Part shown: in pieces, positions 21,596 through 28,291 of the stretch
Numbering within the stretch: the first letter of the stretch is position 1
Layout of the letters: each line of letters opens with the position of its first letter
IMG/VR virus record: IMGVR_UViG_3300025890_000006
Span: 1-37,340 of that record
Direction: 5' to 3' (one strand)
Origin: a virus
DNA: 37,340 nt
Notes under the pieces: model-generated
Seen by the model: the letters and a program-made list of their open reading frames with translations, nothing else
Databases searched by the model: none
Told to the model about the DNA's origin: nothing
Position numbers and translations under genes: made by a program

Positions 21596-24500
21596 TTAGC
21601 GAAAGCGCTCGCTTAGTTCACCCTTGGCCATCGATGCGGGAGCCATGAAGCGATTGGCTGGCATCGACTGAGCTTGCTGTTGGACTCGATTGGTGGGTTG
21701 AGCCTTTGGTGCTTTTGGATCGGAGGGCATGAAATTTACTTCTCCTCGACCTAGCCCCTCAAGTTGCTTTTCAAGCTTCCTCACTTTCTTATACATTGAT
21801 TGGCGTTGGTTTCTCGTATACTTCCCTGTTCCCGAAGAGTTTTGCAGTTCCAACCTAATTGCATCTATTTCATCCGATAAAGCTTTACCTTCAAGGGTTC
21901 CCGTAGCTTTAAGTTTGGCATCCTCAATCGCTTTACTTGCTTGCTCCCTTTGCAAACTTTCTTGGGTGGCAATCTCTTGATTGAGTTTCTGTATTTCTTC
22001 CCTTCGACTTATAATAGATTTTATACGATCCTCTAGCCTTTTAGGTACTCTAAAATCAGTTTTATTTTCAAGTTTTACAATCGCATCGATCCAATCCCCC
22101 GAAGATTCTGAGACATTTTTCTTATTGGATGCTAATGTAAAATCGGGTCTGCGATGGTTCGTGATGCTAGAAAGTTGCCTATCGTGATCTGTTGCACGAA
22201 TCTTAAAAGCATCACCATCCTCGCCAATGTACTCAATGTATGTCGAGCCCTCGCCACCTTCATGCTTCCCGATCCTAATGTCTAACTCTGCCCCTCCTTG
22301 TGACTCATTTATTATCCCCTCAAGTAACGATGCTTGGATTAGATGATTTCTTGATGGGCTGTCTAATGGGTCTTTTTTAGCAGATGCCTCCAAGTCTTTA
22401 AGTTTATTCTTAGCCTCACTAGCAGGCATAAAAAGAATATTCCCCTCCCCCGCATCGAAGGTTCCCCGATTGCCTGTGGCCGATTTGATTTGTTCGGGGG
22501 AGAAGGCGACTATTTCGTCAATCCTTCCATTATCGAATTTTACAATAATGCCGTCATGCCCTCGTTCTTTTGCAGATTGAGCTAGAAACGGGTCACTTGC
22601 CGATGTGCTTTTTACTATTAAGGGATTTTCTAAGCTCAGATATGAATCAATAATTATTTCATCATTTCCCTTGTTTATACTCTGCAACTTTTGATCGAGC
22701 TTGCTTTCAAATTGTTGTAGTTTTTTATATTCAGGACTGTTTAATCCTAAATCTATAGCCGCCATCATAGTAGAAGTCCCAAGCTGTTTTGCCTGTGCCT
22801 CGTATTCTTTTTGGAGGGCTAAAACTTCGGGGTCAGTTTTCTTTATTGCATCTTGGCTGTAAAGTCTTGCCTGCCCCTTTTTGGGGGTAAAATAAAAGCC
22901 TTCACCAAAGTCACCTTTATTTATCGTTTGGTATCGGTCTGCATCAAAGGCTGTAAACTTATCACTCGTCCCATGATAAACCACCAACGGCTCCCCGTTC
23001 TCATCGACTACCTTGGACTTGCCGAACCAATTCTTAAAGTATGGCGAATCTGTACCCTTCTCATTCCATAGCTTTGCGGCCTCGGCAAGCTTCCCTTTCG
23101 ATGCACCCGCTTCGGAGGCTGGCATAAAAAGCTTCTCGGTAATCGTGACGTCGGAATCATCGAAGATGACATAATTGAAATCGCCCTTGCCCTTGCCTCG
23201 GGATGCACCATCGAGGTATTTGATGCCTGGTATGCCGGCTTCTTTGAGGGCGGCGGAGGCTTTTGGTCCTCCTAATTCTCTTGATAAAGTATCGTAAAAA
23301 CTGCCGCCATCATTACTAAAAAGTCGAGACAGCCCACCAGCATCAATCATTTCTTTATAGCTACTATATCCGACTAAATCATCAAAATTTTCTGAACCTT
23401 TCTCAACCTTCTCCCGCACCGCCTTGGGTTGCTCGGACAGAGGCTTATCCCATAGCAGATACTCGTTCTCCTTCGGGGCGAGCTCGACTTTGTAGAGTGA
23501 GCCTTTGGGTGGTGGGGTCTTTTTAGCTTCAGTTTTATCACGAAGAACTTTTACTAAATCGCTACGATCAGCATTAGGCATTCTTTTAGCCCTTCTTTCG
23601 TAATAACCTATCAATGCTTCTCGATCCCCAAAGTTCTCCAAATCTAGTGCCGCTTGATGCCTTGGGTCTCTTGAGTTATAAGGTTGACCATCGTAAAAAC
23701 CTCTTTCGTCTTGAGTTAGCACTTTCCGATAATGCTCCGCCACTTCCTTCTTCCCCGCAAAGTAAAGCCCATGCCCATAGGCTTGCGCCCCCTCGCCCGT
23801 CCCGATCTGCGAGGACTTGAACTTGCCTAGAGGGGCACCCTCCTCGGCCTTGAATGTGTGCGGGGTTCCATGATAGGCGGCAGGCATAAACATCTTCCCC
23901 CCTCCCCTGTCGGCTCTCCGATGGGCCCGATCCATCGCCTGCCTGAGCTTGCCCTTCTCTAGCCCGAGCAAGGGGGCCTGGCTCTCGATGATCGAGCCGT
24001 CCATCCAAGGGCTTCCGACTTGGATCAGAACGTCGGCCACTTCGTCATAGACTTTCGGACCCTTTGGATTGATTCGATAGATCTCCCAAAAGTTTGGCTT
24101 GCTCTCGAGGGATTGAGTGGCCTTGGGCGGGGAGAAGTCGAGTTCCATTTGGGGCATCATTAGCTTTTGCCCTTGTGGAGCCATTAAGTTTTTAGCCCTT
24201 TCCAAGTTAAAGCCCGATGCCGTGCCCGATCGTTTAGCATCGAATATCCGATCAAGGCGGAAAGTTTTAGTTGCGGGGCCAAATGGGCTCCTCTTCTGAT
24301 TAATTCCCGCCATCTTCCATCCGATTGCGGACAAAACAGGATTTTTCGCCACATGAGCCTTATCGATTCCGCCATGCAAAGCATTAAGAAAGTTGAGTTT
24401 CTTATCTGCTTTAACGGGATCGGGGTCCAAGCCTGTTCGCCCGTCAATTCCGTTGGACGTATTGTTACGATAAGTCTCAAATGCATCCCAAACTGCATTG

Positions 24501-28291: not shown

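Follow-up and report, generated by a model that had tools for sequence, protein, structure and literature searches.

The viral record IMGVR_UViG_3300025890_000006 of IMG/VR, analysed here over its whole length of 37,340 nucleotides (the window), encodes a giant protein of 2231 residues on its minus strand. This protein is probably a virion-delivered polyvalent effector protein, in which a conserved carrier (residues 1–1380) is followed by an array of cassettes and a C-terminal tail. Polyvalent proteins combine at least two disparate activities in one large polypeptide and are encoded among the late, virion or transfer genes of phages and conjugative elements (Iyer, Burroughs, Anand, de Souza & Aravind 2017; PMC5512222). 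In the giant, a zincin-like peptidase and ADP-ribosyltransferase (ART) activity are predicted from the sequence, and its gene lies in a late, virion-gene context. The multi-effector reading of the initial annotation is supported by an ART-PolyVal domain, an invariant zincin motif, fold matches of the carrier and a homologue of the ejection protein gp20 encoded directly upstream. The combination of metallopeptidase and ART, which the initial annotation took to be uncharacterised in a small podovirus, is common in the class, where the peptidase is the commonest hub domain and the ART the commonest protein-modifying domain (PMC5512222). The giant is a member of this known class; its carrier family, the motif at its module boundaries, its cysteine-free character and the exchange of its cassettes set the variant apart.

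The reading frame (21596–28291) starts with ATG, is uninterrupted and, at 6696 nucleotides, covers 17.9% of the window; its position and size are as first described (18% of the genome). Gene calling on six independent contigs from metagenomes gave the identical 2231-residue protein. Because of such a length and of relatives at 53–99% identity, the frame is not a chance occurrence.

The ART-PolyVal domain (Pfam PF18760) is recognised at residues 1763–1945 with an E value of 5e-22 and a score of 79.5 bits, against a gathering cut-off of 31.2, over profile positions 1–140 of 140. The active site of this family is H-Y-D (PMC5512222), and the candidate residues H1773, Y1800 and D1925 of module B occur in the expected order and within the expected motifs, as judged from the sequence only. 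Of the two ART modules proposed by the initial annotation, module B is solid at 79.5 bits, whereas module A, which has no Pfam match, is only partly supported. Module A shows the same order of motifs (Y-H-G-T, G-x-G-L-Y-F, G-I-P-G-I, and D-x-N-Y-V-I-F) and was aligned to ART-PolyVal by hhalign with a probability of 93% (E value 3e-7), the alignment being confident only over the first ~50 columns. The residues H1474, Y1510, and D1704 are candidates for its active site, with the confident alignment limited to the N-terminal half. Module A would thus be a divergent, ART-PolyVal-like relative, and its catalysis is only a candidate property. It is homologous to the C-terminal part of an internal virion protein of the T7-like Burkholderia phage Bp-AMP1, and another relative is a 387-residue head-module protein of Sulfitobacter phage phiGT1.

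A candidate zinc metallopeptidase occupies residues 800–960 of the carrier. The HExxH motif noticed initially was confirmed at residues 857–861, and it is invariant, together with E942, in 55 aligned relatives with identities down to 21%. Seven columns of this alignment are invariant, four of which are H857, E858, H861, and E942; Y910 is also invariant. In the zincin core of polyvalent metallopeptidases, a first helix and three strands are followed by two further helices, and the core includes the HExxH helix and a downstream helix bearing a Glu (PMC5512222). The AlphaFold 2 (AF2) model of the carrier has the same topology, i.e., a helix (117–129), three short strands (134–137, 143–146, and 151–154), the HExxH helix (162–188) and the Glu-bearing helix (247–264), where model numbering equals residue number minus 689. 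The peptidase assignment is based on these motifs and on the predicted topology. Besides the giant, no peptidase was recognised in the genome.

The carrier defines a large family. In a large protein database, 26 relatives of 1300–2430 residues share the first ~1380 residues at 53–99% identity; they diverge past this point and then usually agree again over the last ~50 residues. An exhaustive profile search with residues 1–1195 extended the family to a superfamily of at least 198 cluster representatives (142 with an E value ≤1e-10), which are 1000–3170 residues long and share the part corresponding to residues ~690–1190 of the query at 20–30% identity. Members were seen only in uncultured phages, and the GTDB representative genomes gave no carrier match. 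Outside the ART-PolyVal domain, the giant has no match in Pfam, PHROGs, NCBIfam or PDB sequence searches, the last of which returned nothing with either the single protein or the family profile. This agrees with the initial description of a central region lacking known motifs, which holds for residues ~1000–1470. In this the giant differs from the known polyvalent proteins: its 1380-residue carrier is not covered by any model of Pfam, PHROGs or NCBIfam and is absent from the cultured phages searched.

Modelling of residues 790–1385 by AF2 from a 6-sequence alignment gave an unusable result (predicted local distance difference test, pLDDT, 43.6). The 55-sequence alignment rescued the model, which for residues 690–1385 has a mean pLDDT of 78 and a predicted template-modelling score of 0.71 and is confident at residues ~780–1360. 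In a Foldseek search of BFVD, seven proteins matched this model with an E value ≤1e-3 (2.7e-10 to 4e-5), and all seven are large uncultured-phage proteins whose names refer to LPD (large polyvalent protein associated domain), ART-PolyVal or NAT domains. From these matches and the empty family searches it follows that the carrier is a conserved, unannotated scaffold of one polyvalent-protein class. The top Foldseek match in PDB, the crAss virion RNA polymerase (6vr4), was rejected as the carrier fold (E value 0.38, probability 0.06). A virion RNA polymerase of the N4/crAss type was likewise discarded, as the sequence G-D-G-E-R (residues 1180–1184) is not kept as an acidic motif in distant relatives.

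In the N-terminal half of the carrier, the initial annotation described several hydrophobic Gly/Ala-zipper segments over roughly 800 residues. Such segments are present, but they amount to three short, weakly hydrophobic stretches (residues 484–518, 572–588, and 726–769) and do not span residues 1–800. They are uncharged, with a maximal Kyte-Doolittle 19-residue mean of 1.59, and lie in a part of the protein (residues 471–800) with 28% Gly plus Ala. The segment at 726–769 falls in the region common to the whole superfamily.

Downstream of the carrier the protein is modular. Alignments by BLAST to the 26 relatives break at residues ~1380, 1470, 1720, 1957, and 2181, and exactly at these independently mapped breakpoints every module boundary carries the family motif K-L-F-M-P-A/S. 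With the leading residue, the five copies read K-L-M-M-P (1376–1380), K-M-F-M-P-A (1466–1471), K-L-F-M-P-A (1720–1725), I-L-F-M-P-A (1952–1957), and V-N-F-M-P-S (2185–2190); a basic residue usually precedes copies of the motif. Among 116 superfamily proteins, the pattern [FY][LMI]P[EDAST] occurs 2.22 times per 1000 residues downstream of the carrier vs 0.29 times upstream, an enrichment of ~8-fold in the variable regions, and its frequency in 29 unrelated polyvalent proteins is 0.23 per 1000 residues. For the query alone, the probability of at least four linker motifs is ~8e-5. Clade-specific versions exist (K-L-F-M-P-A in the query, T-R-Y-L-P-E, and R-F-M-P-E), each present three to four times per protein.

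Cutting 27 proteins at the linker motif and clustering the pieces under a 70% coverage rule yielded ~23 module types in a conserved order. The array opens with one of two short modules (m4 or m6), to which extras may be added; the ART-like module A and then ART-PolyVal come next, followed by a varied module without assignment and by a tail of 42 residues, which is kept at 59–86% identity regardless of the modules that precede it. The comparison with metagenomic relatives that had been proposed as a check thus reveals modules that differ downstream of a shared carrier. With Pfam, ART-PolyVal was identified in 12 of 19 relatives, and DUF7178 and GNAT in one each. Among 21 distant superfamily members ART-PolyVal was found in 10, DUF7178 in six, and LPD37 in two, and endolysin-like and ParB-C modules occur as well. 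A crude scan of the C-terminus for heptad periodicity showed nothing notable and is uninformative on the coiled coil claimed there. Eight distant superfamily members (P0087, P0093, P0094, P0096, P0099, P0108, P0113, and P0141) also conserve an N-terminal box, D-P-x-N-[FY]-[ILV]-P-x-G-A-A, at residues 225–360. It resembles the boundary motif and is degenerate in the query family (D-P-L-N-L-A-G, residues 336–342, window ~27266–27286); it may be an extra processing site that the lineage of the query has lost.

The exchange of a cassette was observed between near-identical genomes. One of these (L104) is 98.9–99.9% identical to the window over 23.6 kb and encodes a version of 1977 residues from which module A is missing, the difference being a clean in-frame indel of 762 nucleotides. 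The junction lies inside TTTATGCC, i.e., within the codons of the F-M-P linker, and the product reads K-M-F-M-P-A-S-E-A across it. Nucleotide identity changes from 98.8% on the left of the junction to 99.87% on the right, and versions with and without module A each recur on several independent contigs. Near-identical genomes are hence shown to have gained or lost a module by recombination within linker codons. A second variable patch, at ~33420–33797, lies in the gp10/Hc3-like 'nozzle' gene, where L104 is not alignable and its gene call is 577 rather than 872 residues.

These features suggest how the protein could work. The giant would be synthesised late and taken into the capsid along with the two cysteine-free proteins encoded upstream, and at infection it would pass through the tail unfolded, as the third ejection protein. 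Its Gly-zipper segments (residues 484–518, 572–588, and 726–769) might help it engage the envelope. The built-in zinc peptidase could then cut the linkers, of the form [KR]-x-[FY]-[ML]-P-[AS], and free the modules, and the ART modules, with NAD+ as substrate, would ADP-ribosylate proteins of the host at the very start of infection, for take-over or counter-defence. The conserved linkers would double as crossover points at which effector cassettes are swapped between phage lineages. Tentatively, and with more doubt than confidence, we extend this to the superfamily as a self-processing, plug-and-play platform for effector injection, in which a cysteine-free carrier would thread through the podovirus tail, the zincin would cut a co-evolving [KR]-x-[FY]-[ML]-P-[AES] motif between cassettes and so release enzymes that differ from lineage to lineage, and the DNA of the same motif would serve for cassette crossover. 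Self-processing by such peptidase domains has been proposed for polyvalent proteins, with the processing of P1 DdrB as a precedent (PMC5512222). The linker motif also calls to mind the sites preferred by another metalloprotease. Anthrax lethal factor cuts MEK1/MEK2 after Pro, with basic residues upstream and hydrophobic residues at P2 and P1', a preference resembling K-L-F-M-P-A if the cut were placed between Pro and Ala; we take this analogy as a lead only.

The main rival holds that the giant is ejected in one piece, with the F-M-P linkers acting as hinges and recombination joints, the peptidase acting in trans on host defence or envelope factors, and the ARTs remaining tethered at the site of entry. 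It owes this rank to the N4 virion RNA polymerase, ArdC and TraC1, which keep such peptidase domains and are delivered uncleaved (PMC5512222), and the conservation of both the N-terminal carrier and the C-terminal tail is best understood if the two ends are parts of one functional chain during assembly. In addition, service as a recombination junction is the sole demonstrated property of the linkers, and it needs no cleavage. However, the DNA copies of the linker in the window share only 8–14 nucleotides and differ synonymously (CCT vs CCA), so that the peptide, and not the DNA, is the conserved feature. The peptide motif is kept, in its clade-specific versions, across clades with 21–30% carrier identity, which argues for selection on the peptide, and it is enriched only where modules meet. 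We therefore consider delivery as a permanently intact chain unlikely, and retain cleavage at the linkers as our working proposal.

The location of the giant gene bears on whether the protein is in the virion at all. Its place at the end of the virion block was borne out, as gp10-like, fibre-like and gp20-like genes precede it and the synteny is kept in IMG/VR loci. In the direction of transcription, an 872-residue protein (31423–34041, minus strand) similar to gp10, 'Hc3' or 'phage stabilization' proteins is followed by a fibre-like protein of 252 residues, and then by the 356-residue and 422-residue proteins and the giant. The 422-residue protein matches, over its residues 234–357, P22-like proteins annotated as 'DNA transfer' or 'released from the phage upon host infection' (tblastn E value 3e-8; pairwise 3e-13), as well as a virion protein of Mx8. 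Its gene is co-oriented with the giant gene and overlaps the start of the latter by 1 nucleotide. Salmonella phage SEN22 encodes, in this order, Hc3 (gp10), needle, gp14, gp7, gp20, and gp16; because the giant directly follows the gp20 homologue, it occupies the gp16 slot. The initial comparison with T7 gp16 and other ejected proteins was right in placing the giant in an ejection slot, but P22 gp16, of the trio gp7-gp20-gp16, is a better analogue than T7 gp16. The order 356 residues, 422 residues, giant, and a protein of 140 residues is kept in more than a dozen IMG/VR loci.

All three consecutive proteins lack cysteine, while the other 26 proteins of the window average 1.0% Cys (P = 1.6e-10). 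All close relatives of the giant and almost all of 150 superfamily members are cysteine-free, as are the gp20-like and gp16-like proteins of SEN22 (L105, 4266–7669) and the giants of Phage C75C1 and Limnohabitans phage DC33; most of the unrelated polyvalent proteins sampled are nearly so. Also free of cysteine in the window is a scaffold-like protein of 348 residues (1561–2607, minus strand), and the replication proteins contain 1–4% Cys. The absence of cysteine would fit an unfolded passage through the tail channel and the periplasm. The synteny, the lack of cysteine and the homologues of module A in internal virion proteins give indirect support to a presumed delivery of the giant into the host with the DNA. 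The contrary proposal, that it is not in the virion and acts as an intracellular multi-enzyme factor for anti-defence or host shut-off which merely adjoins the structural genes, can appeal to the fact that packaging is something we infer, and to the genes for a Holliday-junction resolvase, an exonuclease and a DNA polymerase directly after the giant, which mark a module border. It appears quite improbable in view of the co-oriented, overlapping gp20-like gene, the ejection-block synteny, a lack of cysteine common to bona fide ejection proteins and the two upstream proteins and not to replication proteins, and the relatives of module A in internal virion and head-module proteins.

An ordinary structural role (as a ruler of the tape-measure kind, as a fibre or as a core protein of the T7 gp16 type, with incidental enzyme motifs) would suit the size of the giant, its position in the tail/ejection block and the charged, probably helical stretches of module C, but is largely refuted and can practically be dismissed: the ART-PolyVal score is far above the Pfam threshold, the catalytic-type residues H, E, H and E do not vary within the superfamily, a length that varies freely (1300–2430 residues) among close relatives is unsuited to a ruler, no lytic transglycosylase domain was found in Pfam or PHROGs, and a tape-measure or tail-fibre identity lacking enzymatic domains, the outcome named at the outset as refuting the polyvalent reading, was not found with Pfam, PHROGs or Foldseek, the Foldseek matches of the modelled residues 690–1385 to a tape-measure protein (E value 1.3) and to an internal virion protein D of T7-like type (E value 1.2) being non-significant.

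Several results nevertheless weigh against a virion-delivered effector with a working peptidase. No Pfam peptidase matched the giant up to an E value of 1. A Foldseek search of PDB gave only non-significant matches, among them the peptidase domain of ArdC, the anthrax lethal factor, PprI and selecase, with E values of 0.7–6 (0.7–1.1 for the first two), so that a zincin assignment at the level of the fold is not claimed. By hhalign, the peptidase region and the TFLHETGH-type domains of other polyvalent proteins gave a probability of 0.7%, the aligned part being the R/H-E-x-F-A-E helix only. The Gly/Ala segments are too weakly hydrophobic for transmembrane helices. The carrier was not found in the cultured phages searched by tblastn with the query and two distant members, whose matches there involved C-terminal modules only. 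The comparison of the giant with the gp16-like protein of SEN22 was non-significant by BLASTP, hmmsearch and hhalign, and with respect to T7 gp16 the giant has neither a lytic transglycosylase domain (Pfam, PHROGs) nor detectable similarity.

Comparison with known systems places the giant as follows. Polyvalent proteins (PMC5512222), such as the RNA polymerase-ART protein of Roseovarius Plymouth podovirus 1, DdrB/DarB of P1 and the 3125-residue protein of Limnohabitans phage DC33, are like the giant very large, combine a zincin-like peptidase with ART-PolyVal and domains of unknown function, are encoded among late or virion genes and are nearly cysteine-free. Unlike the giant, the unrelated ones have no F-M-P boundary motif, and their peptidase domains (TFLHETGH-type) are not detectably related to that of the giant. 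With the P22-type gp7/gp20/gp16 system (Lederbergvirus, SEN22) the giant shares the order of a gp10-like protein, a needle or fibre and three consecutive proteins, of which the middle one, gp20, is homologous to the 422-residue protein; the giant, in the gp16 slot, is 3–4 times longer than P22 gp16 and carries enzyme modules. We know of no ART or HExxH domain described in P22 gp16. The giant resembles T7 gp16 (internal virion protein D) of the gp14/15/16 ejectosome in being the biggest of a trio of presumably internal proteins whose genes come after those of the tail.

In MARTX toxins and viral polyproteins, several effectors are joined in one chain, and a protease within this chain cleaves the linkers between domains. 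They are a mechanistic analogue only, with a carrier that includes a translocation region, an internal protease, swappable effectors and short conserved linkers, and no homology is claimed; MARTX toxins employ a cysteine protease domain and secretion, in contrast to the zincin motif and phage ejection of the giant. The concept of an ART delivered with the DNA is shared with T4 Alt, which is packaged in the head, injected, and modifies host proteins at time zero (PMC5512222, PMC9503650). Alt, however, belongs to the R-S-E clade and not to the H-Y-D type of ART-PolyVal (PMC5512222), and is a single-domain myovirus head protein rather than part of a polyprotein.

Two other podoviruses of ~39 kb devote a fifth to a quarter of their genomes to cysteine-poor giants encoded after the tail genes. 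Phage C75C1 (OQ984151.1, L101) encodes giants of 2769 and 1343 residues (38751->7576 and 8707–12738), and Limnohabitans phage DC33 (L102) encodes its giant at 7072–16449. Their carriers are unrelated to that of the window, the carrier profile giving no match to the giants of either phage. GenBank assigns DC33 to the Inoviridae, apparently a mistake in the record given that the genome has 39 kb and carries such genes.

Table 1. Features of the giant protein and of the two proteins encoded upstream of it, with residue numbers and window positions.
Feature	Residues	Window positions	Strand	Remarks
Whole giant reading frame	1–2231	21596..28291	-	2231 residues, no cysteine
N-terminal domain	1–330	27302..28291	-	Invariant columns in close family A1/A3; not shared by distant superfamily members
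Helical Gly/Ala-rich region	331–790	25922..27301	-	3–4 uncharged Gly-zipper-like segments
Candidate zincin-like metallopeptidase domain	800–960	25412..25894	-	AF2 secondary structure and invariant residues
HExxH motif, H857-E858-I-T-H861	857–861	25709..25723	-	
E942, candidate third zinc ligand	942	25466..25468	-	In invariant helix R-E-I-F-A-D
Conserved alpha/beta domains, carrier end	961–1380	24152..25411	-	Model pLDDT mostly 80–97; matches only BFVD polyvalent proteins
Linker 0, L-M-M-P, carrier end	1377–1380	24152..24163	-	L1377 and P1380 invariant
Module m4	1381–1470	23882..24151	-	Unknown; relatives have a different 99-residue module, m6, here
Linker 1, M-F-M-P-A	1467–1471	23879..23893	-	
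Module A	1471–1724	23120..23881	-	Divergent, ART-PolyVal-like; absent from 99%-identical genome
Linker 2, L-F-M-P-A	1721–1725	23117..23131	-	
Module B	1725–1956	22424..23119	-	ART-PolyVal (Pfam PF18760, residues 1763–1945)
Linker 3, L-F-M-P-A	1953–1957	22421..22435	-	
Module C	1957–2189	21725..22423	-	Small domain without identity, then charged, probably helical stretch
Linker 4, N-F-M-P-S	2186–2190	21722..21736	-	
Conserved 42-residue C-terminal tail	2190–2231	21599..21724	-	
422-residue cysteine-free protein		28291..29559	-	Upstream of giant; residues 234–357 homologous to P22-type gp20 ejection/'DNA transfer' protein
356-residue cysteine-free protein		29569..30639	-	Candidate first ejection protein, by position only

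The window itself represents a whole genome. Positions 1–37 are the same 37 nucleotides as positions 37304–37340, and because of this terminal overlap we take it to be a circular, complete podovirus assembly of ~37.3 kb; since the assembly is circular, the reading frames at the two ends of the window are parts of one gene region. Nearly all large genes lie on the minus strand. They are transcribed in the order large terminase, portal, scaffold-like protein, SU10-type major capsid protein and, across the circular junction, the tail genes, followed by the giant gene, a Holliday-junction resolvase, an exonuclease, a family-A DNA polymerase, a deoxynucleoside monophosphate kinase and a primase/helicase. 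In the tail region, a protein of 256 residues (35023–35793, minus strand) contains a Laminin_G_3/concanavalin-like lectin domain (E value 4e-25) and is likely a receptor-binding or glycan-binding protein. The phage has no RNA polymerase gene. Two to three of its proteins, all very small, contain a Sigma-70 region 4 domain, including those at 6431–6748 and 17808–18107 (both minus strand; E values 6e-6 and 5e-9), and one lies at 22693–22944 in L104. This suggests that the phage redirects the host polymerase via mini-sigma or appropriator-like factors. In Pfam and PHROGs scans of the larger reading frames of the window, no endolysin, holin or prohead protease was recognised, and the proteins of 140 (21036–21458), 244 (19344–20078), and 286 residues (12487–13347) remained blank.

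A relative with 53% carrier identity marks one end of a prophage-like region in a contig of 366 kb (L001, JGI 3300046170; 1–16411, 16434–26411). The prophage-like block adjoins the cellular genes SecA, IGPS, and KsgA, and the SecA is 97% identical to that of the marine Opitutia metagenome-assembled genome ARS1007. The match indicates that at least some members of the superfamily have marine Verrucomicrobiota as hosts, which for the window phage itself is a lead only. The same contig suggests that some members are temperate, and no integrase was noticed among the reading frames of the window. The uvMED group G11 (Verrucomicrobia phages, PMC3861242) was considered as a home for the phage and rejected, as a tblastn search with the portal gave, apart from some contigs of spring water, no match but Phage C75C1 (30% identity).

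A complete lack of cysteine, also seen in ejection proteins of the P22 type, may provide an easy way to spot ejected proteins in the sequences of metagenomic phages. The class of polyvalent proteins was predicted from comparative genomics and has hardly any experimental basis, and this family is an exceptionally clean system for tests. Because it has one carrier, a candidate protease with four invariant residues, a candidate cleavage motif at each module boundary and natural variants that differ by one module, the self-processing proposed in 2017 is directly testable with recombinant protein, which matters since the hosts are uncultured. Modules m4 and C, together with roughly 20 others in the relatives, constitute a catalogue of candidate early host-takeover or anti-defence effectors of abundant marine phages. 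If the self-processing platform is real, uncultured marine phages, with relatives that would lysogenise Verrucomicrobiota (Opitutia), would have a functional counterpart of the MARTX-type multi-effector toxins.

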